A DNA stretch of 20,000 nucleotides from an uncultured virus (IMG/VR IMGVR_UViG_2706794523_000001). Taxonomy: Duplodnaviria; Heunggongvirae; Uroviricota; Caudoviricetes; Schitoviridae. How positions within the stretch are numbered: position 1 is the stretch's first letter; every line of letters starts with the position of its first letter. Of this stretch, positions 1-20,000 are shown in pieces. Under the pieces are notes generated by a model, which saw only the letters and a list, made by a program, of their open reading frames with translations, did no database searches and was not told the origin of the DNA. A program made the position numbers and the translations under genes. The DNA lies in IMG/VR virus record IMGVR_UViG_2706794523_000001, positions 53,303 to 73,302 of that record; one strand, given 5' to 3'.

Positions 1-1190
1 ACGCCGACACCCTGCGGCCGGTACTTCTGAACCAGGCGGAACAGCTCGTTGATCGACACGTCCATCGTCGTGCGCTCGCAGAAGCCGTCGACCCAGAACC
101 AATCGCCATTGGAGTTGTAGGCCCAGACCGAGATGACCGAGAAGTCGGCCGTCTGCTTGTCGGAGGTCGCGAAGTCCGTGGTGATATAGAAGTTGAACTG
201 GCTCTGGCGCTCCATCAGCTGGATGCGCGAGAACTCGCGGATCTCCTTGTCCTGGACCAGGCGCTCTTCGTCGGAGGAGATGCGCAGCATCAGCTCCTGC
301 ATGAAGCCCTCGACCTTGCCGGTCAGGACCGCGTCCTCGTACTGCTTGACGATGAAGTCGTAGGTGAAGCGATCCTCCCAGGCGCCGCGGAACTCTTCGC
401 GCGAGCAGGGGAAGCGTTCGCACACCGGCCAGACGTTGACGTCCCAGGCGCCGGACTCTACCGCCTCGACCATGATGTCTTCGAGGTTGAAGGGCGTGCC
501 GTTGAAGACGATCTTGCGGCGGGTCGGATCGAGCGCGTAGTTGATGCCCTTGTAGACCGTGTCCTTGATCGCCTGCATCGAGGCCTTCGACTTGGCGTCG
601 TCGTCGGACACGAGATCGTCGAGCACCGCGAGAGGCGGCCGCTTGCCGAAGATCTTCGTTCCGCGGATGCCGGTCTTGGCGCCGAACATCTTGATGCCGA
701 ACCGGTGGCCGTCCTTGTTGGTGAACTCCAAATAGTTGTCGGTGAAGTGCGCCTCCGGCAGCCACTCCTGCAGGAACTCGCTGTTTTCGTAGCGGAACTG
801 GACGTTCTTGCGTGCCGACTTGACGCCGTTCTCCATCGAGTCGGAGACGTAGATCATGGCCGACAGCTTGCCGAAGCCAGGCAGGTAGCCGAACACGGCG
901 ATGAACAGGACCAGGTATTCGAAAAAGAGCGTGGTCTTGGCCGCGCCGCGAAAGCACAGGTTCGCGATCTGTTCCGATTTTGAAGTGGCCAGCTTGTCGA
1001 GCATCTTCAGATGCACCGGCGGGGTCTTGTGGCTCTCGCCCTCGGCGCCATTCACCAGCTTGATGAAGTTCATGAAGATGAGCGCGAACTGCGACGGCAC
1101 ATAGGATCCGTCGCTCAGCGCCCCGTAGTCGACCTCATCCAGCCACTCGTCGAGCTTCTTCTGGACGATGACGCGATCGGACAGCTCCAT
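1..1190 (-). CDS. terL: Terminase large subunit, N4 gp68-like (3' end runs off the window)
   Basis: Manual translation from ATG 1190 (absent from the ORF track): MELSDRVIVQKKLDEWLDEVDY...FIKLVNGAEGESHKTPPVH...CFRGAAKTT (Walker A-like)...RPPLAVLDDL (Walker B)...FNGTPF...FYITTDFATS (nuclease). This is the typical N4-like TerL signature. Confidence 0.93.
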   Translation of the reverse strand, partial: MELSDRVIVQKKLDEWLDEVDYGALSDGSYVPSQFALIFMNFIKLVNGAEGESHKTPPVHLKMLDKLATSKSEQIANLCFRGAAKTTLFFEYLVLFIAVFGYLPGFGKLSAMIYVSDSMENGVKSARKNVQFRYENSEFLQEWLPEAHFTDNYLEFTNKDGHRFGIKMFGAKTGIRGTKIFGKRPPLAVLDDLVSDDDAKSKASMQAIKDTVYKGINYALDPTRRKIVFNGTPFNLEDIMVEAVESGAWDVNVWPVCERFPCSREEFRGAWEDRFTYDFIVKQYEDAVLTGKVEGFMQELMLRISSDEERLVQDKEIREFSRIQLMERQSQFNFYITTDFATSDKQTADFSVISVWAYNSNGDWFWVDGFCERTTMDVSINELFRLVQKYRPQGVG

Positions 1191-1200
1191 CCGTGATGTC

Positions 1201-2001
1201 TCACTCGACATCGGTCACCTCTTCCTTGTTGACGAGGCGAGCGCCGGCGACGTCGATGGTCTTCATCTGGCCGCCCTGGATCAGGCTCTGCTGCTGGTCG
1301 GCGAGCTTCTCCAGCATCTCGCGCATGTCTTTCATGCCCGAGTTCTCGGACTGGTTGAGGTTGATCTGGAAGCCGGCCTTCATCTCGGGCTTCTTCAGAT
1401 GCGTGAGCAGTCCGATCGCCGCCTCGGCTTGGACCTTCTCGGAGTTGGCGTTCATCATCAGCGTTGCGAGCTGGTTGATCGCCTTCTGGTGGATATCCTG
1501 GTTGAGCACCCAGGTCGGAACCAGGGATTGCTCCATGATCAGGTTGACCAGCTTGCCCCGGGCAAAGGCCGACACGTAGGCCGAGATGTCTTTCTTCGAG
1601 GCGCCCTTGGCGAGCAGCGCGGAGTAGCGGGTCGGGAACGTCTTGGCGTAGGCGTCCTCGTTGTTGTGTCCCATCAGCTTGAACGACACATAGGTGACGG
1701 CGCTGAGATAATCCTCGGTCTTGAATTTCCCTTCCTTCAGCACGGCCGTGTAGCTGATGAAGTTGTCGCGGATGTTCTCGGCGATGATCGGGTCGGCCGA
1801 GATCTGGTTGAGGGTCTGAACCAGGTTCGGGGTGACCGATGCCCGCAGGTGCGTGGGCAGCGCCCGCTTGACGTCGTCTTCCGTCAGCGGAACCAGATTG
1901 GAGGGGACCGGCGCCGCGGGAGCGGGCGGCAATGGCGCAACAGCTGGGGCAGCCACAGGCTTGGGCGCCAGCGGCGGATTATTAAAAAGCGAGGACGTCA
2001 T
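1201..2001 (-). CDS. N4 gp69-like conserved protein (possible terminase small subunit)
   Basis: ALPTHLR...IRDNFISYTAVLKEGKFKTEDYLSAVTYVSFKLMG...TFPTRY...KLVNLIMEQSLVP matches the recalled N4 gp69 family. It lies directly upstream of terL, and AAGGA precedes ATG 2001. Confidence 0.8.
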   Translation of the reverse strand: MTSSLFNNPPLAPKPVAAPAVAPLPPAPAAPVPSNLVPLTEDDVKRALPTHLRASVTPNLVQTLNQISADPIIAENIRDNFISYTAVLKEGKFKTEDYLSAVTYVSFKLMGHNNEDAYAKTFPTRYSALLAKGASKKDISAYVSAFARGKLVNLIMEQSLVPTWVLNQDIHQKAINQLATLMMNANSEKVQAEAAIGLLTHLKKPEMKAGFQINLNQSENSGMKDMREMLEKLADQQQSLIQGGQMKTIDVAGARLVNKEEVTDVE

Positions 2002-2775: not shown

Positions 2776-2873
2776 GACAGCCACCAAGCCATACCAGCGG
2801 CGCCGGCAATGAAGCCGACGCCCGCATAGACCCACTTCGTCGCCCAGGGGATGATCAGATCTTCGAGTCCCAT
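2772..2873 (-). CDS. Small membrane protein, 33 aa
   Basis: MGLEDLIIPWATKWVYAGVGFIAGAAGMAWWLS*; coupled to both neighbours by TGATG and GTGA overlaps. Confidence 0.6.
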   Translation of the reverse strand: MGLEDLIIPWATKWVYAGVGFIAGAAGMAWWLS

Positions 2874-4193
2874 CAGTCCCTCGCCAGGTTCTGGAATTGC
2901 TGGGCCTGCTGCTGCGCAGCCCGCTGGCCGGACACCAGCTCAAGCGCTTCCTGGCGAGCCAGGCGCCGGGACAGATGATGCTTGTGGAGCTCCATCGCAT
3001 TGACCTGCTGGTACATATCCCGGCGGTCGACAGACGGCAGACGGTTGAAGGCGTCGGTGCGGAGGAAGGCTTCGAGCTTGTCGTAGCGCTCGGTCAGCTG
3101 CTGGAGTTNCGGCAGACGGTTGAAGGCGTCGGTGCGGAGGAAGGCTTCGAGCTTGTCGTAGCGCTCGGTCAGCTGCTGGAGTTCGAGCTTGGCCCGGATC
3201 TGCCAGGTCTCGTCGCTGGTGTGGGTCTCGTCCTCACCGCCCTTGTTCATGAAGCGGGTCATGTCGTTCATAAGGGAGAGGAGGTTCTCGTCGAGATGAT
3301 CATCTTCGGGCAGGAGCTCCCGATAACAGCCGATTGGCTGGTCTTTGTATCGGAGCTTCATACGGAGGGATTTGCCTTCGGGACCGTCACGGAGAACGAT
3401 CTCGCCGAGCCGAGTCTCCTNATCGGAGCTTCATACGGAGGGATTTGCCTTCGGGACCGTCACGGAGAACGATCTCGCCGAGCCGAGTCTCCTTGCTCGC
3501 CTCACCGGTCCCTTCCGCGCTTGCGGCTGCCGGCTGCGCCTCTGCCGCGCGCACGGGCCGGTAGGCTCGCTCGAACACTTCCTTGGGGGACCAGGAGATG
3601 TAGCCCTTGAAACCGGGGACATGGGGAGGGTTCTCGACGCGGTCGGTGTATTCGACAATGTAGCCTGCATCGTTGCCGTCTTCATTGGACGGCAAGGTCC
3701 ATCCGCGCAGCTTGTTGTATTGCTGCCGGCTCATAGGCGTGGCGTTGATCACCTTGGTTCCGATGTAGGTCTCGAAGCCTTCCTGCGGTTCTACCAGGGC
3801 GCCACCGATCAGGCGTTGGTCGCGGGCCATCCTCGACTTGAGCTCGTAGCCCATCAGCGCCCACATCTTGGCGATGGCGTCCGACTTGGCCAGGCGCTTG
3901 CCGATCTCGGGGTTGAAGTTCTTCGGGTCGGCGCACGCGCTCTGACCCAGGACGGTGAAGCCGTTCCACAGGCGCAGCACACAGATAGTCAGGAGGCCGA
4001 GGTCCGGATCCAGTGGCAAAGGGTAAGCCGGCACGGAGCCCGTCTCGACGGCAGCATCGAGAAAGCCTGCTCGGGCGCCTTGTTCCGCACTGAAGAAGTG
4101 CTCGGAGATAATGGCTGCTTCGACGTCGGCGAGGGTAACCCGTTCGCCGCGGGCGCCGTCGATCAGCTCCTGCTCGGTGACATTCGTATTCAT
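2873..4193 (-). CDS. Multidomain protein (~390 aa after removing artefact duplications): N4 gp49/Sf6 gp66 domain + YIGTK..SWSPKxVF domain + unknown domain + crAss001_48-like helical domain; putative anti-defence nucleotide sponge
   Basis: Track ORFs 3387..4313 and 2873..3361 join in frame (...GKSLRMKLR|YKDQPIG...) once 73 nt (a 72-nt copy plus the N at 3421) are removed. 1321-73-75=1173 nt = 391 codons. AAGGA lies upstream of ATG 4193. Confidence 0.75.
3035..3183. repeat. Exact 74-nt tandem duplication separated by N (assembly artefact)
   Basis: 3035-3108 = 3110-3183, N at 3109. Confidence 0.9.
3349..3493. repeat. Exact 72-nt tandem duplication separated by N (assembly artefact, causes apparent frameshift)
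   Basis: 3349-3420 = 3422-3493, N at 3421. Confidence 0.9.
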
Positions 4194-4228
4194 GAAAGGA
4201 TTGTCCTTAAACATAGAGGGAGTTGGGC

Positions 4229-4444
4229 TCAGCCGGTAATGCCGTCGGGAGCGGGCGTGATGATGTGGTAGTCGACGCTCTTCTCGCGGATCAGGATGTA
4301 GCCCTCGTCGCACTGCAGGCGCACGTAGGTGCCCTTGGCATCCCAGCTTGTGATGTTGCGCAGGTTCAGGTGGTTGCCTGACTTGAATACGACCTTGCGC
4401 TTCAGTTCGAGGACGGGAACAGCTGCCTTCAGTTTATCGCTCAT
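4229..4444 (-). CDS. Hypothetical protein, 71 aa
   Basis: MSDKLKAAVPVLELKRKVVFKSGNHLNLRNITSWDAKGTYVRLQC...; AAGGA upstream of ATG 4444. Confidence 0.7.
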   Translation of the reverse strand: MSDKLKAAVPVLELKRKVVFKSGNHLNLRNITSWDAKGTYVRLQCDEGYILIREKSVDYHIITPAPDGITG

Positions 4445-4536
4445 AATATTTTCCTTGCATATGTCAAAGTGGTTATCTAATAATCCGACGATAGATTGTA
4501 GACCACCATTGGGTTGATAATGCAAGGGGTATTTTT

Positions 4537-4617
4537 ATGAGCGATTATGTTCTCTATATCGGGCTCGCGATCGACGCGGCCATCCTGGCCTGGCTTATCG
4601 TGCGGGACGTCTACTGA
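4537..4617 (+). CDS. Small membrane peptide, 26 aa
   Basis: MSDYVLYIGLAIDAAILAWLIVRDVY*; AGGGG upstream and TGATG coupling to the next ORF. Confidence 0.55.
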   Translation: MSDYVLYIGLAIDAAILAWLIVRDVY

Positions 4618-4865
4618 TGCCCCAGATCAAGCTGCTCGACCTGACTGACGCCGAGGTCTCCGAGATTCTGGGAGAGGAGCCAGAGGAAATGACCGTGGGG
4701 CTCGACAACGGCCTGACCCTTCCGGTGACCATGATGCTGGACAAGGATGGCAACCCCACCGACATCGTGTTCGATGCAACGACGCTTCTCGCCGGCTCGG
4801 CCGCGCTCGGCTGGTACGAGATCGACGTCGCCGACGGATCCTGGTCTCGTCCTCTCCTTCACTGA
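4617..4865 (+). CDS. Acidic hypothetical protein, 82 aa
   Basis: ORF with phage-like codon usage, coupled to the upstream peptide. Confidence 0.65.
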   Translation: MPQIKLLDLTDAEVSEILGEEPEEMTVGLDNGLTLPVTMMLDKDGNPTDIVFDATTLLAGSAALGWYEIDVADGSWSRPLLH

Positions 4866-4869
4866 GAAA

Positions 4870-5400
4870 ACGATAGACATCTTTCAGATTGATCGAGGGT
4901 GGGGCTTTACAGGCCCCCTTCCCTTTGTTAAAGAGCGTGCTCTTTACCACCGCCCCACGGCCTACCTCTGCATCTCCCCCCTACTGTTTTCTTTAGAAAG
5001 AAAATAAGAAAGAGAGAGATACGGACGGGCGAAGCTATATGTGGGTGACCCCACTGGGACCTGGGGGACTCTGGTTCATTAAAGAGATAATCATTACCAC
5101 AATGATTTGAAAACCATTAAGGTAAATCCTCGCGCTATTTTTAAGGGGATTTAATAGATAATGATTAGCCTGTTTTCTCTGGCTCATTATCTTGGTTCCG
5201 ATTTTGGCGATTATGCCGCCCATTATGCAGATAATATTATCTAGATTTTTGCAGTAGCCATTTTATCATAATGACGTTCTGGTGCTGTACATACACCGGG
5301 GGTGACCCTGTCAGATTTAAATACCCCCCCGGTCTAACACCCTCACACCCATACTCACCACCCCCTGTGTTCATGGCGCTTCGCGCCTTCTGGATCATTC
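4870..5400. other. Non-coding junction of genome right end and left end (probable terminal direct-repeat region)
   Basis: AT-rich and lacking convincing ORFs. It lies between terL/gp69 (end of N4-type genomes) and the first vRNAP promoter/gp1 (start of N4-type genomes). Inverted repeat ACCGGGGG (5295-5302)/CCCCCGGT (5326-5333). Confidence 0.65.
5375..5394 (+). promoter_or_regulatory. N4-type virion RNA polymerase hairpin promoter (early promoter 1)
   Basis: GGCGC-TTC-GCGCC-TTCT-GGA: 5-bp stem, 3-nt loop (GAA on template), 4-nt spacer, G at +1. Same architecture as N4 P2 (GAAGC-TCC-GCTTC-TTTT-GGA); directly upstream of gp1. Confidence 0.85.
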
Positions 5401-5424
5401 ATCCTAACATAGGAGCATACGCAT

Positions 5425-5751
5425 ATGGCTACCGTTCTCAGTGCATCTAACGCTACTGCCACGTCGATCCTGTCGACGGTGCAAACGCTGGCTCATACTG
5501 CTCAGCGTACCATAACCACAGCTGCTGCTGGGTTGGACATGCTGGACACATACGTCGAAGACGCTCGTGTTCGTCAGGCTGATCAGTCCAAGATCAACCG
5601 GCACAACTACCGTAAGTCGCTCATTCAGGAGTCTGCTCTGGAGCAGGCTCGCAAGGAGCATCAGCTCACACAGGAGATTGGTTCCAACCAGGTCCTGGCT
5701 AAGCTGTTTAATGACAATCATGCAGCTCTGGAGGCGCTTTTCGCCTCCTAA
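5425..5751 (+). CDS. N4 gp1-like early protein, 108 aa
   Basis: AGGAG RBS; first gene after the hairpin promoter. Length and the S/T/A-rich N-terminus followed by GLDMLDTYVEDARVRQ resemble N4 gp1. Confidence 0.7.
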   Translation: MATVLSASNATATSILSTVQTLAHTAQRTITTAAAGLDMLDTYVEDARVRQADQSKINRHNYRKSLIQESALEQARKEHQLTQEIGSNQVLAKLFNDNHAALEALFAS

Positions 5752-5762
5752 TGGAGCTCTAA

Positions 5763-5786
5763 GACTCAGCGCTTCGGCGCTGGGTC
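5763..5786 (+). terminator. Stem-loop with C(UUCG)G tetraloop after gp1 (terminator-like or stabilising)
   Basis: GACTCAGCGC-TTCG-GCGCTGGGTC; no clear U-tract. Confidence 0.5.
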
Positions 5787-5900
5787 ACACCATTATCTCG
5801 ATAGTATATTCAAATTATCGCGGTAATCCCCAACATACTGTGACGACAGACCATCGGTTCTGGCGCATCAATCAACCACTCAAATCGCGAGGAATTCCCA

Positions 5901-6101
5901 ATGGGCCGCAAGGACCAATCCCATTCTCATGGGGCAATGCCGTTCGACTATGAAGTCGATGCGGCTGCTCAACTGCGCCATCAGGCGTTCGGATCGCATT
6001 CGTTTCTCGATGAAGGCTTTGATGCCTTCGATCACGAGGACCAGATGCTCCAGGCAAATGGTCGGCTCAATCCCGTCTGGGAGATGAGCAATGCCCGTTA
6101 A
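5901..6101 (+). CDS. Hypothetical early protein, 66 aa
   Basis: GAGGA RBS; overlaps the next ORF. Confidence 0.6.
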   Translation: MGRKDQSHSHGAMPFDYEVDAAAQLRHQAFGSHSFLDEGFDAFDHEDQMLQANGRLNPVWEMSNAR

Positions 6102-6345
6102 GGCTCCTGCCGAGTTCAACCTCGACAAGATGTTCGTGGCTCACGAGCAGGACCAATACGAGACGGCTTGTCGTCTCGATCCTGAACCAATGGTCAAGGA
6201 CCAGCTCAACTGGGCCGAAGTACGCTTCGTGATCAGGAGCTTGATCCTGGTCGGCTGCATCACCATCGGCACTGTCATGGGCGTCTGCGCCATCTATGAG
6301 CGCACCGCACATCATCAGGCCATCGTCTGCCAGGAGGGCTGCTAA
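6091..6345 (+). CDS. Hypothetical membrane protein, 84 aa
   Basis: Hydrophobic segment FVIRSLILVGCITIGTVMGVCAIY; TAATG coupling to the next ORF. Confidence 0.65.
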   Translation: MPVKAPAEFNLDKMFVAHEQDQYETACRLDPEPMVKDQLNWAEVRFVIRSLILVGCITIGTVMGVCAIYERTAHHQAIVCQEGC

Positions 6346-6542
6346 TGCCCATCCTTAGCAAGAGCGAGCTCAAGGAGCTAATCGAGGCTCAATACACACC
6401 AAGCGAGGCTGCGATTATCACATCGGAGATCCTCGCTCGCATCCAAAATGATCCCGCACTGGCACATGAGATCGGCACTCTACTGATCGAGTGCGCAATG
6501 CGGGATGTCGCCGAAGCTTTGACCTCAACCCACAAGGACTGA
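6345..6542 (+). CDS. Hypothetical protein, 65 aa
   Basis: AGGAGG RBS, coupled start. Confidence 0.65.
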   Translation: MPILSKSELKELIEAQYTPSEAAIITSEILARIQNDPALAHEIGTLLIECAMRDVAEALTSTHKD

Positions 6543-6545
6543 ACC

Positions 6546-6677
6546 ATGAAGAAGATCATCATCCTCGCTGTTGCCCTGCTCTGTGCCGGTTGCGCCAGCG
6601 CCCGTTACAACGACCATTACGTCGGCGATTCCACTGGCTGCAGTGGCATTCCGTCCTGCTACAGCCCTGTCGAATAA
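6546..6677 (+). CDS. Small lipoprotein-like protein, 43 aa
   Basis: MKKIIILAVALLCAGC-ASARYNDHYVGDSTGCSGIPSCYSPVE*; AAGGA RBS; basic N-terminus, hydrophobic core and an AG|C lipobox-like site. Confidence 0.7.
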   Translation: MKKIIILAVALLCAGCASARYNDHYVGDSTGCSGIPSCYSPVE

Positions 6678-6680
6678 ACC

Positions 6681-6893
6681 ATGATGATCATCACAACCGA
6701 TGCGCTCAATCGTGAGCACATCGCCGATCGCATGGTAGTTGGCGGTATCCCCGACACACCAGAAAACCTCGATAAAGCCCAGGAGTTCTGCGACTGGGCT
6801 AACACCTTCAGCTGCAGTGATCATGGGGGATCCTTCTACCAGATCGTCGAAAACGGCCATCGCCTCTCACGAGGCATGGAAGATCTCATCTAA
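6681..6893 (+). CDS. Hypothetical protein, 70 aa
   Basis: ORF fills the operon up to the second promoter. Confidence 0.6.
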   Translation: MMIITTDALNREHIADRMVVGGIPDTPENLDKAQEFCDWANTFSCSDHGGSFYQIVENGHRLSRGMEDLI

Positions 6894-6918
6894 ATAACTG
6901 CAATCGCTTGTTTTGGTT

Positions 6919-6938
6919 GGCGCTTCGCGCCTCCGAGA
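6919..6938 (+). promoter_or_regulatory. N4-type virion RNAP hairpin promoter (early promoter 2)
   Basis: GGCGC-TTC-GCGCC-TCCGAGA, hairpin identical to 5375-5387, upstream of the gp2 homolog as in N4. Confidence 0.82.
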
Positions 6939-6977
6939 CCGTCATCATCAACCATGAAACCTCTGGAGCTACCACTC

Positions 6978-7436
6978 ATGAGCATTCTCGATTACACCCG
7001 TCCGGCTGCGCCGGCACCGACCTCGCGTTCGCCTTTCGCTGGCCTGACCAGCGTCACCAACGATCGTCCCAAGGCCAAGCTGTGGCTGAACACCGGCTAC
7101 GTCATCGCCGGCTCGGACAAGTTCATCAACCTGCCTGTCGGCCTGCCGATCGACACCATGGAACCGGCACCGGTGGGCGGCCAGAACGAAGACTGGCTGA
7201 AGCAGCGCCAGGCGCAGAACGAGTTCCTCAAGAGCCTGCAGGCTGCCGGCGCCGACATGGCACCGGGCGAGGAACGCGACATCATCCGTCAGGATATGGG
7301 CAATGGCATCACGCTTGTCGTTCGCCTGCGCCGCGTGAACGAAGAGCGGGCTGTCCCGCTGGCCACCAACGAATATGCCGTGAACTTCACGTCCATGTTC
7401 GCCAAGCCGGCGACCATGCCGGAAGCTGCCGAATAA
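6978..7436 (+). CDS. N4 gp2/Drc-like ssDNA-binding activator of RNAPII, 152 aa
   Basis: DRPKAKLWLNTGY...KFINLPVGLPIDTMEP...AQNEFL...MAPGEE...VRLRRV...NEYA matches recalled N4 gp2 (KPKAQFWLNIGY...FISLPTGIPLDTQEP...LEPGEE...VQLRRV). GGAG RBS before ATG 6978. Confidence 0.88.
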   Translation: MSILDYTRPAAPAPTSRSPFAGLTSVTNDRPKAKLWLNTGYVIAGSDKFINLPVGLPIDTMEPAPVGGQNEDWLKQRQAQNEFLKSLQAAGADMAPGEERDIIRQDMGNGITLVVRLRRVNEERAVPLATNEYAVNFTSMFAKPATMPEAAE

Positions 7437-7439
7437 GCG

Positions 7440-7953
7440 GCAACCAGTAACCCAACCCGTGGGTTGAACAGCATCTAAGCACCTGATCAATGCCGCGATG
7501 AACGAGATGCGATGCTCATTTAACTGCTCGCACAGGAGTCGTCGGGGTACGATCAGCTGCCAACGCAGGAGACTGCAACCATGGACGATTAGATCAGCCT
7601 GCCCGGAGCCATAGGCTCTTGGCAGGTAGGCTACCCAGCTTTTCATGCCCCAATGTGGGTATTCATAGCGCCCTCATATCGACCGCTCATTCGGGCACAT
7701 CTGGCGCACCGATTATCAACTAAATCATCTGATTGGCGTTCCAATCGACCGCGGCGACAATATCGATTCAGTTCGATCGCACCGCGCTAGAGCGTGTCTG
7801 CCATAATACCTCTCGCTGAATGCGGGTCCTGCCCATTGGACCTTAACTATGGCAGCCCCAGAGGCTCTAACCGTGCGAGTAAGCTGCAGCGTGAGTGCAG
7901 CACCTTGAGGAGGCGTTCCCGTGTGAAAGGGGGCGTCTCCTCCTTTTATTTTC
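7440..7953 (+). ncRNA. Candidate large structured ncRNA (~510 nt)
   Basis: No credible plus-strand ORF; more than 10 stem-loops including GNRA tetraloops; ends in an intrinsic terminator. Confidence 0.5.
7907..7953 (+). terminator. Rho-independent terminator
   Basis: GAGGAGGCGTTCCC-GTGTGAAA-GGGGGCGTCTCCTC followed by CTTTTATTTTC. Confidence 0.8.
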
Positions 7954-8105
7954 AAAAGGGATAGACAGGCATTATCTTTAAAAATAATGAGGAATATGCC
8001 TGTGGATAAGTCGGAGAATTTCGACTCGATTCCTACTTCCTGATTAACTTACTAAATGCTAATCCGACTTTTCTCCAAAAATCGGCGATAAGGAGCCTAA
8101 AATCC

Positions 8106-11117: not shown

Positions 11118-11177
11118 GCCATGTGCAACATGCGCCTTTACTGGATCATCCGAACAGCAAAACGAAGGAAGAACCAA

Positions 11178-11562
11178 ATGGCCAAAGAACAGGCCGATCT
11201 GAAGACCTGGCGTGTCACCGACACGCTGGGGAATGTCGAGATGATCAAGGCCCACTTTCTCTTCCGTGAGGAGAATGGTGGGATCACCTTCCGTTTCAAG
11301 ACAGACACTCAATCCTATGTGCCAGCCTGCTATGGCGCCGGCCAGTTCGTATCGTGCATCNACCTTCCGTTTCAAGACAGACACTCAATCCTATGTGCCA
11401 GCCTGCTATGGCGCCGGCCAGTTCGTATCGTGCATCCTGCTCGATCCGCCTGCCGAGCCTGCCGCTGCACCGACGGGCACCTTACCTCCCAAGCAGGCGC
11501 CCGTCATCCCATTCCACAAGCGAGGGCGCTACGCCCAGCTCGACGACGAGATCCCCTTCTAG
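11178..11562 (+). CDS. Hypothetical protein (~102 aa after removing artefact) ending in SSB-like DDEIPF tail
   Basis: MAKEQADLKTWRVTDTLGNVE...FVSCI|LLDPPAEPAAAP...YAQLDDEIPF joins in frame after removing the 76-nt artefact (75-nt copy plus N). Confidence 0.7.
11286..11436. repeat. Exact 75-nt tandem duplication separated by N (assembly artefact)
   Basis: 11286-11360 = 11362-11436, N at 11361. Confidence 0.9.
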
Positions 11563-11572
11563 GAGCAATCCC

Positions 11573-12022
11573 ATGCCCAAATACACCTTCGTCGCCGATG
11601 GCGAGCCCAGCTTCTACGGCGTCTACAAAGACGGGAACTGGTTCGCCAAGATCCAGTTCAATGGCGAGATCACCGTCGCTCACGAGGAGGTATTCCTCGC
11701 GATGATGGCGAACACGGCCGCCACGCTCGACGCCATGAAAAGCCTGATTGGAGACATCGATAGCATGCAGTCCGAAACCCAGCCGAACTGGTTCGGGCCT
11801 TTCGGGGTGTATGAGGACGCCGGCAGCTTCGGTGAGGATCAGGTCGAGATCGAGTGGCCCAACCTGGCCATCTCGGTCGAGAACCTGCAGAAGGCCATCT
11901 TCAACCTCAACACCGATCGTCAGATCGAGGGCGAGCTCACCAAGCAGGTCCTCATCTCCGGCAAGAAGGCCCAGGTCATCCTCACCGATGATCTGGATGC
12001 TGTGCTCAAGGACAGCAAATGA
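11573..12022 (+). CDS. Hypothetical protein, 149 aa
   Basis: AGGAG RBS, start MPKYTFVADGEPSFY. Confidence 0.75.
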   Translation: MPKYTFVADGEPSFYGVYKDGNWFAKIQFNGEITVAHEEVFLAMMANTAATLDAMKSLIGDIDSMQSETQPNWFGPFGVYEDAGSFGEDQVEIEWPNLAISVENLQKAIFNLNTDRQIEGELTKQVLISGKKAQVILTDDLDAVLKDSK

Positions 12023-13378: not shown

Positions 13379-13758
13379 GCCTCATCTTCGTCTTCGGCTC
13401 CAACACAGCCGGCCGGCACGGCAAGGGGGCAGCTCTCACTGCCCTGCGCCACCACGGCGCCATCTACGGCCAGAGCACCGGCCTCATGGGAAACGCCTAC
13501 GCACTGCCCACTTGTGACGCCGGCTTCAGATCGCTGCCGCTGCAGATAATCAGGCACGAAGTCCAGCATTTCATCGCGTTTGCTCGCTCTCGCAAGGACC
13601 TGGGCTTCCAGGTAACCCGAGTCGGCTGCGGCCTCGCCTACAACACGGACGATCAGATCGCCCCGATGTTCAAGGAAGCGCCTGCTTTGAACGTGTTCTT
13701 TGACGAAAAATGGAGGCCGTTCCTCGGGAACGGATATGACTATTGGGGAACGTTCTAA
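13375..13758 (+). CDS. N4 gp14-like protein (macrodomain-like fold)
   Basis: IFVFGSNTAGRHGKGAA...GAIYGQSTGLMGNAYALPT...FQVTRVGCGLA...IAPMF; syntenic just before RNAP1 as in N4. Confidence 0.85.
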   Translation: MSLIFVFGSNTAGRHGKGAALTALRHHGAIYGQSTGLMGNAYALPTCDAGFRSLPLQIIRHEVQHFIAFARSRKDLGFQVTRVGCGLAYNTDDQIAPMFKEAPALNVFFDEKWRPFLGNGYDYWGTF

Positions 13759-13818
13759 GACTGCTCATCCAGATCATCGGGATCTCGATCACCCTGGTTC
13801 GCCAGGCCCAACAACACC

Positions 13819-13849
13819 AAAGGTCGCTCAGCAATGAGCGGCCTTTTTT
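13819..13849 (+). terminator. Rho-independent terminator
   Basis: AAAGGTCGCTCA-GCAA-TGAGCGGCCTTT-TTT. Confidence 0.8.
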
Positions 13850-13931
13850 GCATCTATCACCGGCTACCGCACCGCTAGGCTTTCGCATCGAGCCGGCGCC
13901 AATCCCTGTTCCAACAATCGAGGAGAAAAAC

Positions 13932-14741
13932 ATGCTCGAATTCCAGATTGAGATCGAGAAGCTCTTCCACAAGAACCAGCTCTTCCCCAGGATCAAGGGC
14001 GAGTTCACCGGCTGCAAGGAGTTCGACTTCGCCAAGCATATGAAGGCGCACGGCATAGAGCCGGAGTTCGGCTACGATCTCCTGGTCCAGATGGTTCTCA
14101 ACAAGCGGGCGCCCCTGCAGACCCTGGTCGGCGTCCTACGCAAGCACTTCGGTGGCGACTGCCAGAAGACCGCTGACGCCCTCGTCAAGGCCTGTGAGGC
14201 CGATATGGTCGACTGGAACCCTGTCCAGCGCCAGTTCATCGTCCGCTTCGGCATCTCGCCGGACATCCAGGAGGATCTCGACCGCTACCAGTATCCCCTG
14301 CCGATGGTTGTCGAGCCAAAGGAGCTGACGGCCAACAACACCAGCGGCTACTATACCGGCAAGGACTCGGTCATCCTGCGCGACAACTACCACGACTACG
14401 ACGTGTGTCTCGACCACCTGAACGCGATCAACAAGACCAAGTTCAGGATCAACCAGCAGGTGGCGACCAAGGTCAAGAACAGCTGGCGCAACCTCGACAA
14501 GCCCAAGCCCGACGAAGACCGGGCCGAGTATGAAAAGCGGGTGCGTGCGTTCGAGAAATACGATCGCACCGCCCACGACGTCATGCATCACCTGGGTCTC
14601 GCCGGCGAAGGGGAGTTCTACCTCACCCACAAATACGATAAACGTGGCAGGACCTACTGCCAGGGCTATGTCGTCAACTACCAGGGCACGGCCTGGAACA
14701 AGGCAGTGATCGAGTTCGCCAACCAGGAGGTCATTGAATGA
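13932..14741 (+). CDS. N4-like RNA polymerase II subunit 1 (gp15), 269 aa
   Basis: GAGGAG RBS; YQYPLPMVVEP...SGYY...DVCLDHLN...FYLTHKYDKRGRTYCQGY (DxxGR motif). Confidence 0.95.
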   Translation: MLEFQIEIEKLFHKNQLFPRIKGEFTGCKEFDFAKHMKAHGIEPEFGYDLLVQMVLNKRAPLQTLVGVLRKHFGGDCQKTADALVKACEADMVDWNPVQRQFIVRFGISPDIQEDLDRYQYPLPMVVEPKELTANNTSGYYTGKDSVILRDNYHDYDVCLDHLNAINKTKFRINQQVATKVKNSWRNLDKPKPDEDRAEYEKRVRAFEKYDRTAHDVMHHLGLAGEGEFYLTHKYDKRGRTYCQGYVVNYQGTAWNKAVIEFANQEVIE

Positions 14742-14857
14742 AGTCACCAACCGGCCGGCTCCCAAGCGGGCCGAACATCCAGAACATCCTGATCCGGACA
14801 CCAGAGGTGAAGGCGATAAAAGACGCCCTCATCAAAAAGATCAAAAAACAGCGTTGA
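14738..14857 (+). CDS. 39-aa peptide resembling the DNA polymerase I TGRLSS..PNLQNIP motif
   Basis: MKSPTGRLPSGPNIQNILIRTPEVKAIKDALIKKIKKQR*; AGGAGG 7 nt upstream; ATGA overlap with the RNAP1 stop. Confidence 0.7.
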   Translation: MKSPTGRLPSGPNIQNILIRTPEVKAIKDALIKKIKKQR

Positions 14858-15078
14858 AACTGACAGATAATCGATTAGGATAATCAGGCCGAAATCGGAG
14901 AACGAAAATGTTCCGCTTTTTCTTCCTAATCTGGTTCTCCCACTCCCTTGAGAACCCACTGCGCGAAGCGGGAGCATCCTTCCCAGTGGTGATCCGGAGA
15001 AAGGAACGAACTAGACCCTGCCACAACGCCGGCTTCGTCTAGCGAGCGCCACCAGATGCTCCTTCCCACCTCAATACA

Positions 15079-15110
15079 GAGCAGCCCCATTCCGGGGCTG
15101 TTTCTATTTT
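15079..15110 (+). terminator. Rho-independent terminator
   Basis: GAGCAGCCCC-ATTCC-GGGGCTGTTT-CTATTTT. Confidence 0.7.
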
Positions 15111-15122
15111 GGAGATAATCCT

Positions 15123-15431
15123 ATGAGCGTTATCAGCAAACAACTGTTCGTCGGGCTCTTCGGTGAGATCTCCGGCCCCGACAAGCCAAGGGTCCACAAC
15201 AAGCACCATCGGACGGCGCCGGCAGATGCCGTCTACGTCGGCCGCGGCAGCCCATGGGGCAACCCCTGGAGCATCAACATCGACGGCTCTCGAGAATTCG
15301 TAATCGAGAAATTTCGTACCGAGATCCTGCCGACCCTCGACGTGACCCCGCTCAGGGGCAAGCACCTGGTTTGCTTCTGCAAGCCGGCGGCATGCCACGG
15401 CGATCTAATCCTCCAGGAGGCAAACAAATGA
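15123..15431 (+). CDS. DUF4326 family protein, 102 aa
   Basis: VYVGRGSPWGNPW...LRGKHLVCFCKPAACHGDLI. Confidence 0.85.
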   Translation: MSVISKQLFVGLFGEISGPDKPRVHNKHHRTAPADAVYVGRGSPWGNPWSINIDGSREFVIEKFRTEILPTLDVTPLRGKHLVCFCKPAACHGDLILQEANK

Positions 15432-15637
15432 GCTTCAAAAGCGTAGGCTACACCAGCGGCGGCAAAGTCGTCATCACGCTGGGCAACGGCACCGATCTCG
15501 TCCTCGACGAGAACGATCAGCTTTGCGTCATCGACTACTCAGGCACGCGCATCGAGCTCGGCAAGGGCACCAAGAAGCGCTTCGCCAACCTCAAGGAATA
15601 TCTCGGCCGACTGGCCGTCCACGCCACTGAGGAGTGA
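15428..15637 (+). CDS. Hypothetical protein, 69 aa
   Basis: GGAGG RBS, start MSFKSVGYTSGGKVV. Confidence 0.7.
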   Translation: MSFKSVGYTSGGKVVITLGNGTDLVLDENDQLCVIDYSGTRIELGKGTKKRFANLKEYLGRLAVHATEE

Positions 15638-15641
15638 CATC

Positions 15642-15920
15642 GTGGGCGATTTCAGCGTCGACTTGGATATCGACCTATGGGGACGCGGCAGAGGCGTTAA
15701 CGGACAACTCGGAAACCAATGGCTCCGGGACCACTATCCGCACGTCGATCTCTACGGAACCAAGTTCGGCAAGAACGAGCCCAGAACACTTGAAATACTC
15801 CAGGAGTTTTTCGAGCGGGATCACAACGAGCAATACCCGTTTCTGCTGAGATTCGGGGTCGTATTCTTCCAGGAAAAGGAACAGGCCGATCTATTCAGAG
15901 GCCTGCTCTACATCTATTAA
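15642..15920 (+). CDS. Hypothetical protein, 92 aa
   Basis: GAGGAG RBS, GTG start. Confidence 0.7.
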   Translation: MGDFSVDLDIDLWGRGRGVNGQLGNQWLRDHYPHVDLYGTKFGKNEPRTLEILQEFFERDHNEQYPFLLRFGVVFFQEKEQADLFRGLLYIY

Positions 15921-15944
15921 CCCAACCACAGGAGCGGCTACCAC

Positions 15945-17150
15945 ATGTTCCAGGAATTCACCGGACGCGAATATCTCAAGATCGACATCGCCAACAACTT
16001 TGGCCTCGACAAGCAGGACTGGGACGTTCGGCTCGATTGGTTCGACAAGAACGAGCACCAGCTGCACACCCTCCTCAACAAGGCGGAAGAGCCAGCCCTC
16101 TTCTACGCCGCCATCCTCGCCTGGGAAGCAGCCAAGGCCGGCAAGCCCTCGGGCTACCCGATCTCGCTCGACGCCACCTGCTCGGGCATCCAGATCCTGG
16201 CAGCCCTGGCCGGCGATCGTAAGGCGGCGCAGATCTGCAACGTCGTCGACACCGGTCATCGGGAAGACGCCTATGTCTCGATCTACCAGGACATGGTCAA
16301 CAAGCTGGGCGATGCTGCCAAGATCGACCGCAAGCTCACCAAGCAGGCCATCATGACCCATTTCTACAGCTCGACGGCAGTGCCGAAGAGCGTGTTCGGC
16401 GAGGGCCAGCTGCTCTCGATCTTCTATGACACCGTGCGCGAGAATGCGCCGGGAGCCAGTGAGATCACCGACACCATGCTGGCCATCTGGGACGAGACCA
16501 AGCTCGTCTACGAATGGGTCCTGCCCGACAACTTCCATGTCGTCGTCAAGGTCATGGGCTCAGTCACCGAGACCGTCCACTTCCTCAACGCACCGTTTGA
16601 CATCTCCTACAACGTCAATATGCCCATCAAGGGCGGCCGTTCGCTGGGCGCCCACAAGAACCACTCTGTTGACGGCATGATCGTTCGCGAGATGCAGCGG
16701 CGCTGCAACTACAACCCGGAGAAGATCCAGGAGCTCACCAAGCTCCTCGACGCCGGCGCAGCGGGCCGCAGCACGCATCGATACCAGGACAAGCTGCTGA
16801 TCACCCTGCTGGAGCACCACAGGCATTCCAGATTCCTGTCAGCGCGTGTTCTCGACTTGCTCGACATAGACAACCTGGGCCTGATCTCTCCGGCCCTGGT
16901 ATACGACCTGATCCACAGCCTGCCCAAGAAGCCTTTCGAGGTCATCTCGGTGCACGACTGCTGGAGATGCCTGCCCAACTATGGCAACGATCTGCGCCGG
17001 CAGTATAACAATCTGCTCGCTCTGATCGCGGAATCGGAGCTGCTGGGCTTCATCGTCGCCCAGATCATGAACCGTCCGATGTTCACCATCAACAAGCTCG
17101 ACCCTCACCTGGGCCGGGACATCCGCAATGCGAACTACGCTCTCTCGTAA
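15945..17150 (+). CDS. N4-like RNA polymerase II subunit 2 (gp16), 401 aa
   Basis: FTGREYLKIDIANNFGLDK, motif A LDATCSGIQ, motif B RKLTKQAIMTHFY, motif C SVHDCW, C-terminal ANYALS. Confidence 0.96.
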   Translation: MFQEFTGREYLKIDIANNFGLDKQDWDVRLDWFDKNEHQLHTLLNKAEEPALFYAAILAWEAAKAGKPSGYPISLDATCSGIQILAALAGDRKAAQICNVVDTGHREDAYVSIYQDMVNKLGDAAKIDRKLTKQAIMTHFYSSTAVPKSVFGEGQLLSIFYDTVRENAPGASEITDTMLAIWDETKLVYEWVLPDNFHVVVKVMGSVTETVHFLNAPFDISYNVNMPIKGGRSLGAHKNHSVDGMIVREMQRRCNYNPEKIQELTKLLDAGAAGRSTHRYQDKLLITLLEHHRHSRFLSARVLDLLDIDNLGLISPALVYDLIHSLPKKPFEVISVHDCWRCLPNYGNDLRRQYNNLLALIAESELLGFIVAQIMNRPMFTINKLDPHLGRDIRNANYALS

Positions 17151-18728: not shown

Positions 18729-18958
18729 CACGCTCCCTCGCCATCTCCCAACGCCAAGTTCAGTCGCTGATTCGGGCGGCCGATGCCGAAAAAGCTATTG
18801 TAGAAGTCAAGGTCGGAAACGCTGTTTACCGACTTATCCCCAAATCTCTCGCCGATATCGCCGCACCGGCTCTTGACGAGAGTCCCTCTCCGTCCGCCTT
18901 TAAGAACCTGGATGAATACCGGGCTTGGAGGGAGAGGCACCGTGATCGTGAAGATTAA
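18725..18958 (+). CDS. Putative excisionase/recombination directionality factor, 77 aa
   Basis: Small ORF overlapping the integrase start. ISQRQVQSLIRAA...IVEVKVG..YRLIP resembles small proteins that precede alphaproteobacterial prophage integrases. Confidence 0.5.
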   Translation: MTRSLAISQRQVQSLIRAADAEKAIVEVKVGNAVYRLIPKSLADIAAPALDESPSPSAFKNLDEYRAWRERHRDRED

Positions 18959-20000
18959 GGGTATCCACAAGGTCAAGATGACGCTGGCTGATGGGTCGAA
19001 GGAGACCTACTACTACGCTTGGCGTGGCGGCCCCCGCATGAAGTCGGCGCCGCACACCGAGGCGTTTGCTCGCGAGCATGCCCGTCTCAAGGACAAGGCC
19101 GCCGAGATCTCCAAGGTCATGCCGACCCTGGATACCCTGATCGAATATTTCACCGGGCCGGAAGCCGAGCTCAATCCCGACTTCCTGGCTCTGGCCGAAA
19201 GCACTCGTGTCGATCACCAATATGCCCACAAGCTGATCCTCAAGGAATGGCCCGGGCTGCCCCTCTCCTTCACGCAAGCGAAGGGCTTCAAAGGCGACAT
19301 TCGTAAATGGCATCGCAGCATGCGAGCCAACCCGAGAAAGGCCGACAAGGCTCTTTTCTCCCTCTCGAAGGTGTTCTCCTACGCCATCGAGAATGAATAT
19401 GACGGGATAGACAAGAACCCCTGCACCGGCATCAACCGGCTCTACAAGGGATCCAGAAAGGACTTCCTGTGGACCGCCGAGCAGATAGCCATCCTGCGCG
19501 AGAAGCTTGAGGCGCACTTGTTGCTGCCATTCGAGATCGCACTCGCCACCGGCCAGCGCCAGGGTGACATCCTGTCAATGACCTGGAAGCAGTGGGACGG
19601 CATCTACCTGATGTTCAAACAGTCGAAGACCGGCAAGCAGCTCAAGGTCAAGGCTAACCCCCGGCTCAAGGCTCTGCTGGATCCGCTGGCTGTCACAAAT
19701 AGGGACAAGATCCGGGTCTGCCTCAATTCTCGCAGCCGGCCATGGACCAAGGATGGCTTCAAGACGTCCTGGGGCAAGGCGATGGCCTCCGAGGAGATCA
19801 ACATCAAGGGCGTCACGTACCACGACCTACGCGGGACGTTCATCTGCGATCGAGCCAGGGAAGGCTCATCGATCGAGGACATCGCCCGCATATCCGGCCA
19901 CTCGATGGCCGAGATCAAATCGGTGCTCGAAAAGCACTATCTGGCTACCGATCAGGGGCTCTCCGACGCGGTTATCGATCGCATGCAGAAGAACCCTTAG
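18942..20000 (+). CDS. int: Tyrosine recombinase/integrase, ~352 aa
   Basis: N-terminal YYYAWRGGPR arm-binding motif. Catalytic R (TGQRQGD), K (QSKTG), HDLR, SGH, KHY. GGAGG/GAGG before GTG 18942; TAG at 19998-20000. Confidence 0.93.
   Translation: MIVKIKGIHKVKMTLADGSKETYYYAWRGGPRMKSAPHTEAFAREHARLKDKAAEISKVMPTLDTLIEYFTGPEAELNPDFLALAESTRVDHQYAHKLILKEWPGLPLSFTQAKGFKGDIRKWHRSMRANPRKADKALFSLSKVFSYAIENEYDGIDKNPCTGINRLYKGSRKDFLWTAEQIAILREKLEAHLLLPFEIALATGQRQGDILSMTWKQWDGIYLMFKQSKTGKQLKVKANPRLKALLDPLAVTNRDKIRVCLNSRSRPWTKDGFKTSWGKAMASEEINIKGVTYHDLRGTFICDRAREGSSIEDIARISGHSMAEIKSVLEKHYLATDQGLSDAVIDRMQKNP

Follow-up and report, generated by a model that had tools for sequence, protein, structure and literature searches.

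The window analysed here is the final 20 kb (20,000 nucleotides, nt) of a 73,302-nt virus record, IMG/VR IMGVR_UViG_2706794523_000001, which is classed in IMG/VR as a provirus of 99% estimated completeness and whose gene content, as annotated in the window, is that of an N4-like phage. On its minus strand, at 2873..4193, the window carries one gene for a 390-residue protein that is probably a multi-domain counter-defence sponge directed against two signalling defences. From the N-terminus, the protein consists of an Acb4 domain (PF13876), an unnamed and highly conserved domain (module 2), a linker, an orphan cassette (module 3) and a Sequestin domain (PF21825).

A single gene split in the deposited record

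As deposited, the gene reads as two minus-strand open reading frames (ORFs), 3387..4313 (ATG at 4193) and 2873..3361. The window contains three Ns, at 3109, 3421 and 11361, flanked by exact direct repeats of 74, 72 and 75 nt, respectively, and these are the only perfect repeats of at least 70 nt among the six direct-repeat families of the window. An N between exact copies is the signature of overlapping contig ends that a scaffolder joined by a placeholder N and never merged. Deleting the N and one repeat copy at 3109 (3035..3109; 75 nt, in frame) and at 3421 (3349..3421; 73 nt, out of frame) yields a single ORF of 1173 nt (4193..2873) with 390 codons and a stop at 2873-2875, no internal stop codon, and AAGGA about 10 nt upstream of the ATG. 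In the deposited reading the first of these stretches appears as a duplication of 25 residues in the Sequestin domain and the second as a frameshift inside module 3.

Two intact relatives, P0001 (392 aa) and P0002 (393 aa), align with the collapsed protein from end to end (325 of 389 and 289 of 387 residues identical, respectively) and are gapless at both junctions; on the contigs that encode them, L009 and L010, all three pieces of the gene share one frame. In addition, the Logan re-assembly of runs X1/X2, one sample that is possibly the source of the record, contains a contig of 73,497 nt (depth 44) that joins 3034 to 3110 and 3348 to 3422, skipping exactly 75 and 73 bases with no other letters at the joins; runs X3 and X4, with a small share, held related fragments only. 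The Logan contig alone is not proof, because a de Bruijn graph assembler with k=31 could merge the copies of a genuine perfect tandem repeat. If the duplications were real, the locus would hold a truncated Acb4-module 2 gene and a separate Sequestin gene with an internal 25-residue repeat, as the deposited two-gene reading has it. We consider this extremely improbable: an N is a placeholder and not a base, all three Ns have the same flanks of 72-75 nt, relatives from another sample keep a single frame and have neither duplication, and a double match of PF21825 over overlapping model positions (1-38 and 12-61) is peculiar to the deposited DNA, P0001 having one match over 1-61.

We conclude that the duplications are, almost certainly, artefacts of unmerged overlaps and that there is one gene and not two. 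The first-pass annotation, made from the letters alone, had already fused the two ORFs into one protein of ~390 aa with four modules, and both the fusion and the module positions agree with the gene and the domain limits determined here. Leucine-rich repeat matches of the deposited 181-aa piece were rejected as an effect of the artificial repeat. The third N (11361, between the exact 75-nt copies at 11286-11436) lies inside two overlapping plus-strand ORFs, 11121..11705 and 11354..12022; collapsing it shifts the frame and alters the limits of both, and because no clear single fused ORF results, this site neither supports nor contradicts the artefact reading. Overlaps that a scaffolder leaves unmerged can thus make gene callers miss a long counter-defence gene.

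Acb4 and Sequestin domains at the two ends of the protein

Module 1 (residues 2-125; 3819..4190, minus strand) is an Acb4 domain. PF13876 matches residues 19-121 with an E value of 6.5e-23 and 81.5 bits, well above the Pfam gathering cut-off of 27, and the match was recovered when the whole record was searched. According to Chang et al. (10.1101/2024.12.30.630793), PF13876 is Acb4, a tetrameric sponge for signals of the 3'3'-cyclic GMP-AMP (cGAMP) type; the ligand contacts of the SPO1 protein are known, and eight of eight homologs tested bound 3'3'-cGAMP. Of the nine SPO1 contacts that could be aligned, four, mostly from the adenine pocket, are kept (F48, F62, N63 and I66 as F79, F93, N94 and I97) and five differ, and the domain carries the residues conserved in its own clade.

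Module 4 (residues 305-363; 2957..3208, minus strand, with the first artefact inside this span) is a Sequestin domain, matched by PF21825 in the deposited reading at an E value of 5.7e-18 and 65 bits (cut-off, 24.8). Residues R309, E313, Q347 and R361 have the spacing (+4, +38, +14) of R7, E11, Q45 and R59 in SequestinB, as given in supplement file 7 of Tal et al. (10.1101/2025.07.12.664507), and correspond to the SequestinA pocket residues R8, E12, Q47 and R61. These four residues are kept in 62, 61, 64 and 64, respectively, of the 64 Sequestin domains compared. Tal et al. report that mutation of the E, the Q or the second R abolished Sequestin activity and that type I Thoeris was inhibited by 10 of 13 PF21825 proteins. 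A sequence search found no solved Sequestin chain.

The first-pass annotation had stated, subject to confirmation, that proteins of the N4 gp49/Sf6 gp66 family are Acb4 and that crAss001_48-like proteins are Sequestin. Both equations hold, PF13876 being defined as Acb4 by Chang et al. and by Tal et al., and PF21825 being named Sequestin, with T4 Y16Q as a member, by Tal et al. Both ends of the protein are thus similar to known sponges above the respective Pfam cut-offs, and a scan of the whole 73-kb record showed that this gene is the sole Acb4/Sequestin locus of the phage. The protein closes with a Gln/Ala-rich tail (residues 364-390; 2876..2956, minus strand) that is 96-100% identical in P0001 and P0002.

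Relation to published sponge fusions

An Acb4 domain first and a Sequestin domain last in one polypeptide is an arrangement found in other N4-like phages, in Ab09 gp59 (147 aa, from a Pseudomonas phage) and in LIT1 gp64 (147 aa), which occupies the place of Ab09 gp59 and is presumably its counterpart. LIT1 gp64 is collinear with P0001 (Acb4, 46%, E 9e-18; Sequestin, 36%, E 0.002), and thus the window protein has the same two-sponge design, to which 179 residues are added between the sponges; in proteins of the Ab09 gp59 type, of about 150 aa, Acb4 is joined directly to Sequestin. Biochemically, Ab09 gp59 is a tetramer that bound 1''-3' glycocyclic ADP-ribose (gcADPR) tightly and cGAMP weakly, and it is also a binder of 2'3'-cAA and a trigger of Panoptes (Fedorova et al. 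2026, 10.64898/2026.06.04.730250). The fusion of phage YH6 is a further precedent (Fedorova et al. 2026; Tal et al. 2025). More broadly, PF21825 is the family most often fused to Acb4, with 91 instances, and guilt by fusion was the route by which Sequestin was discovered, as described by Tal et al.

Two other arrangements include module 2. A 252-aa protein of Rhizobium phage RHph_X3_15 (MW960038), entered as Sequestin in supplement file 7 of Tal et al., has the three-module order Acb4-module 2-Sequestin; it shares with the window protein the order of these domains, a location upstream of the terminase genes and 46% identity over modules 1 and 2, but the long linker and module 3 are absent from this and other three-module proteins, rhizobial or not. 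Neither ETRLGEI nor SAEGTG, strings from module 3 and the linker, occurs in that supplement file. Phage N4 likewise has Acb4 followed by module 2 in an N4-type genome, but in two separate genes, gp48 (Acb4) and gp49, in which module 2 leads into Tad2 (PF11195 in Tal et al.). The fusion of module 2 to DUF2829/Tad2, also named in the first-pass annotation, is found in N4 gp49 and in 90 of the 95 further carriers scanned, whereas profile searches found no Tad2 match in the window protein or anywhere in the 73-kb record.

With all three family equations of the first-pass annotation correct, a dual sponge acting on the cyclic oligonucleotide-based antiphage signalling system (CBASS) and Thoeris is therefore the best reading. 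The earlier proposal of one protein neutralising several immune messengers stands to this extent, and such activity was shown biochemically for Ab09 gp59; it is less hidden and less new than was claimed, in view of the 91 fusions already published. The literature already contains the dual-sponge principle, fusions of Acb4 with Sequestin and the use of fusions for discovery; it is the middle modules that are uncharacterised.

Module 2, a conserved companion of sponge domains

Module 2 (residues 140-213; 3555..3776, minus strand) matched no Pfam or NCBIfam family and, among PHROGs, only families of unknown function. Its homology covers about 72 residues and extends to the N-terminal domain of N4 gp49 (40% identity, E 3e-25), the C-terminal half of which is Tad2, and to that of gp68 of Pectobacterium phage vB_PatP_CB1 (CB1), known as RyR Tad (BLASTP E 0.003; E 3.1e-16 with the profile of module 2 itself). 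The partner domain in gp68 is RyR in place of Acb4 and Sequestin, and gp68 does not have the conserved RGW..P.DE loop. The gp68 N-terminal domain is reported as a fold of unknown function that often forms a separate ORF, that in the crystal builds a strand-swapped five-stranded sheet in the dimer, and that alone (residues 1-86) gave no anti-Thoeris I activity (Fedorova et al.); within the accessible literature on Acb4-Sequestin fusions and RyR Tad, we found no description of module 2 beyond this paper. By analogy with the RyR Tad crystal, module 2 is most likely a dimerising or organising unit, although its very strong conservation would also allow it an independent function.

Such a function is the core of an alternative, put forward in the first-pass annotation on grounds of guilt by fusion with modules 2 and 3 as candidate new sponge or cleaving families, in which module 2, module 3 or both would be further signal-binding or defence-blocking units, and the protein would address three or four signals or targets and not two. 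The partners of module 2 argue for it. Among 190 proteins with module 2, a known sponge-family domain is present in 186: Tad2 in 90, Acb4 and Sequestin in 51, Acb4 only in 37, Sequestin only in 6, and an Acb2/Tad1 hairpin and RyR in one each, with no partner recognised in the remaining four. This census is biased by retrieval, which counts against the alternative, in that the queries used to collect the sample contained module 2 and, for half of the sample, proteins shorter than 145 aa were excluded. A second sample, from species-representative genomes of many phyla and with no length filter, comprised 37 loci, six of which were dropped because the match was frame-split or cut. A firm sponge-family domain was present in 20 of the 31 ORFs scanned (Tad2 in 11, Acb4 in 6 and Sequestin in 7, combinations being counted in each family); two had a weak Acb2/Tad1 hairpin below the Pfam cut-off, and nine had none, including four stand-alone forms of 80-95 aa. 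Module 2 is also the most conserved part of the 51 three-domain proteins, with a mean pairwise identity of 0.615 (Acb4, 0.500; Sequestin, 0.392), and aromatic or charged side chains predominate among its invariant residues, which include K147, R163, W165, E171, Y182, Y198 and W201. Because it has no Pfam family, module 2 could not be seen by the Pfam-based fusion screen of Tal et al.

Structural comparison speaks against the alternative, as does the inactivity of gp68 residues 1-86 on their own, which serve dimerisation in the crystal. The AlphaFold2 model of module 2 (predicted local distance difference test score, pLDDT, 94.4; predicted template modelling score, pTM, 0.82) has four strand segments and two helices and matched no nucleotide-binding fold: Foldseek found no match in the PDB (best E 1.4), and the best hits of the VIA fold search (Z 4.3), CarD and Mfd Tudor-like domains, are too weak to use. 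Searches by sequence and profile found no solved chain covering module 2 in a PDB copy that did not include the gp68 crystal structure. In BFVD the model had five matches at E <= 0.001, among them two predicted phage proteins, one with a Tad2-like domain (E 3e-6) and one with an RyR domain, from Yersinia phage TG1 (E 8.7e-4, TMq 0.68).

Some carriers combine module 2 with sponges in other ways. Fusion to an Acb2/Tad1 hairpin is firm in P0196 (E 3e-16) and weak in two prophages of gut metagenome-assembled genomes (MAGs; L098:3998-4537 and L120:3761-4489), the latter with an added N-terminal DUF6275. Chains of several sponges that start with module 2 occur at L105:3992-4690, L106:2796-3494, L115:4001-4696 and L121:3992-4945; those of Muribaculaceae and Lepagella genomes have the order module 2-Sequestin-Tad2, and a Dysosmobacter MAG has module 2-Acb4-Tad2.

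Module 3 and the variable slot

Behind module 2, about 21 residues of conserved low-complexity sequence rich in Ala, Glu and Pro form a linker common to close relatives (residues 214-234; 3492..3554, minus strand), after which comes a slot whose content varies. In the window protein, P0001 and P0002 the slot holds module 3 (residues 235-295; 3236..3491, minus strand, with the second artefact inside the span), and P0013 shows weak similarity to it (E 3e-4 with the linker counted in). P0004, P0005 and P0076 have an AIKEYRA-type cassette in its place, other unrelated inserts are found in P0007, in P0010 and in P0031/P0024/P0049, and in most relatives the slot is empty; none of the inserts has a Pfam family. 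In a quick IQ-TREE phylogeny of Acb4 plus module 2 (87 rows), the window protein groups with P0001, P0002 and P0003 (SH-like approximate likelihood ratio test, SH-aLRT, 95), of which P0003 lacks the cassette, and the next neighbours are differently equipped. The C-terminal states require 26 changes on this tree, compared with a minimum of 8 and a shuffled mean of 38, a count in which some of the rows scored as having no Sequestin may be cut ORFs.

Module 3 is a real domain under purifying selection. Its ratio of non-synonymous to synonymous rates (dN/dS) is 0.093 relative to L009 (17 synonymous and 8 non-synonymous differences), 0.655 relative to L010 and 0.363 between L009 and L010, all calculated from small counts. 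The terminase at 3-1211 is 97.6% identical to L010:4954-6057 and module 3 only about 51-54% to L010:2989-3189, and synonymous divergence along the gene ranges from 0.16 to 0.76; the region is therefore a recombination mosaic. Module 3 behaves like a small clade-specific accessory cassette, with a putative target, and the content of its slot is exchanged or dropped between close relatives.

The module is known from three sequences, and the collections searched held no other relatives. An exhaustive HMMER search of 1.84 billion representatives gave no matches at E <= 0.001, a word-index search returned P0001 only, phage records gave none at E <= 1, and pattern scans matched only L089 (the contig of P0001) among viral contigs and nothing among metagenome and genome contigs. 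Neither Pfam nor NCBIfam matched, the best PHROG had an E value of 0.095, the ESM Atlas gave no usable match, and hhalign comparisons with alignments of Tad2 (probability 0.8%), module 2 and Acb4 were not significant. The predicted structure has three strands followed by a helix, for which the best fold-search score among PDB representatives was Z 4.9, none reaching Z 5, and the best BFVD match had an E value of 0.13. Of the 50 rows listed in the fold search, 11 are by title ribosome hibernation factors (4), release factors (4) or double-stranded RNA-binding domains (dsRBDs; 3), at Z 3.3-4.1. Small folds of three strands plus a helix are common, and so the dsRBD-type likeness is a hint only. 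The same three classes are the structural neighbours reported for the Acb4 monomer (Chang et al.), itself of a dsRBD-type fold, and in the boldest reading module 3 might even be a further, much diverged unit akin to Acb4.

These data bear in two ways on the alternative that the middle modules are further units. A cassette that is under purifying selection yet swapped among close relatives resembles arms-race cassettes, whereas module 3, like module 2, matched no nucleotide-binding fold, and it is acidic. On balance we regard a target of its own for either module as unlikely, but we give it some weight because the conservation of module 2 exceeds that of the ligand-binding domains and because module 3 is swappable. 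A still bolder version, which we hold to be slightly less likely again, would make module 2 a sixth, unnamed anti-signalling unit added to nearly every sponge family, binding a further signal or host factor or needed for sponge function, and would make the slot behind it a plug-in site for fast-turning, host-specific counter-defence cassettes, module 3 included.

A putative dual sponge and points against it

Our preferred reading remains that of one sponge for two signalling defences, with module 2 as its organiser. From the parallels described above we infer ligand binding, oligomeric states and the roles of the middle modules as follows. The N-terminal Acb4 domain would be expected to form tetramers that sequester CBASS cyclic dinucleotides of the 3'3'-cGAMP type, and the C-terminal Sequestin domain to form antiparallel dimers that sequester 1''-3' gcADPR, the type I Thoeris signal, so that a single polypeptide could blunt two signalling defences in the manner shown for the 147-aa Ab09 protein. 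In a homo-oligomer, four Acb4 domains would assemble into the cyclic-dinucleotide tetramer and Sequestin pairs into gcADPR dimers, pairs of module 2 would supply additional dimer contacts, and the linker and module 3 could let the parts assemble independently.

Several observations weigh against this reading or against details of it. The only solved relative of the Acb4 domain, PDB 9e4w, is a weak match (E 0.0027), and five of the nine aligned SPO1 contacts differ (E49 to T80, V56 to C87, Y57 to A88, T70 to L101 and K81 to A112; K36 is unaligned); the pocket is therefore only partly SPO1-like, and specificity cannot be read off. A tblastn search with the 77-aa Sequestin piece matched no phage record. 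The conservation of module 2, above that of both sponges, is more than a plain spacer would need, and its scaffold role is drawn from one distant homolog that lacks the RGW..P.DE loop. For module 3, the model is only moderate (pLDDT 67.1) and the isoelectric point is 5.26. Finally, the gene sits upstream of the terminase genes and outside the hotspot between primase and virion RNA polymerase (vRNAP) described for Migulavirinae, in which it is unlike Ab09 gp59.

Genomic setting

The position of the gene raises the question of a role in phage morphogenesis or packaging instead of counter-defence. In the window the gene belongs to a leftward block in which about a dozen small ORFs without family precede it and the terminase genes come after it, namely a 271-aa gene (1204-2016), whose homolog in phage Arace01 is called small terminase, and the large subunit gene terL (3..1211, minus strand). 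Of 10 related N4-like loci examined, all 10 have a homolog of the 271-aa gene downstream and 9 have terL there. A morphogenesis or packaging role is nevertheless highly unlikely: sponge activity has been demonstrated in the families of both end domains, the pocket of the Sequestin domain is intact, and the C-terminal half has been gained, lost and swapped in a manner unlike that of a core morphogenesis gene. The counter-defence reading is thus retained. The small ORFs directly upstream of the sponge gene (about a dozen, 4229-7646, minus strand) match no Pfam or PHROG family and are possible further accessory or counter-defence genes.

Protein-level relatives of the phage are N4-like phages of Rhizobium/Sinorhizobium, Pseudomonas, Klebsiella and Escherichia, and a megablast search of 7 kb against phage records found no match, and thus no close phage record. 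Relatives P0005, P0007 and P0010 are encoded on contigs of 108-164 kb that NCBI names Mesorhizobium. The window also encodes the N4-like two-part RNA polymerase (13743-14738 and 15945-17147) and a DprA-like protein; between the polymerase II subunit genes (13743-17147) lie a DUF4326 gene (15123-15428) and small ORFs. The leftward block of genes and the rightward one diverge at 7650-8105, around a strong terminator-like hairpin (7907-7942; 14 pairs), and this divergence region possibly corresponds to the genome ends of an N4-type phage. A tyrosine integrase lies at the extreme end of the window (18873-20000 region), and IMG/VR labels the record a provirus, yet the Logan contig that contains this region is, at 73,497 nt, close to the record in size, and the phage therefore appears as its own contig in that assembly. 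Scans for promoters, terminators, tRNAs and Rfam families added nothing.

Implications for phage counter-defence

The protein extends the published fusions of Acb4 and Sequestin by a member with four modules and draws attention to two features of its middle part. Module 2 exceeds the sponges in conservation and occurs joined to domains of five sponge families, yet it is unnamed, and the slot that follows it is occupied in close relatives by small cassettes unrelated to one another. If neither module 2 nor the slot cassette has an activity of its own, the protein would be an unremarkable, if rather elaborate, representative of a class already known. If either has one, the phage toolset against nucleotide-signalling immunity would be extended, and the mining of fusion slots beyond Pfam-named domains would be validated.

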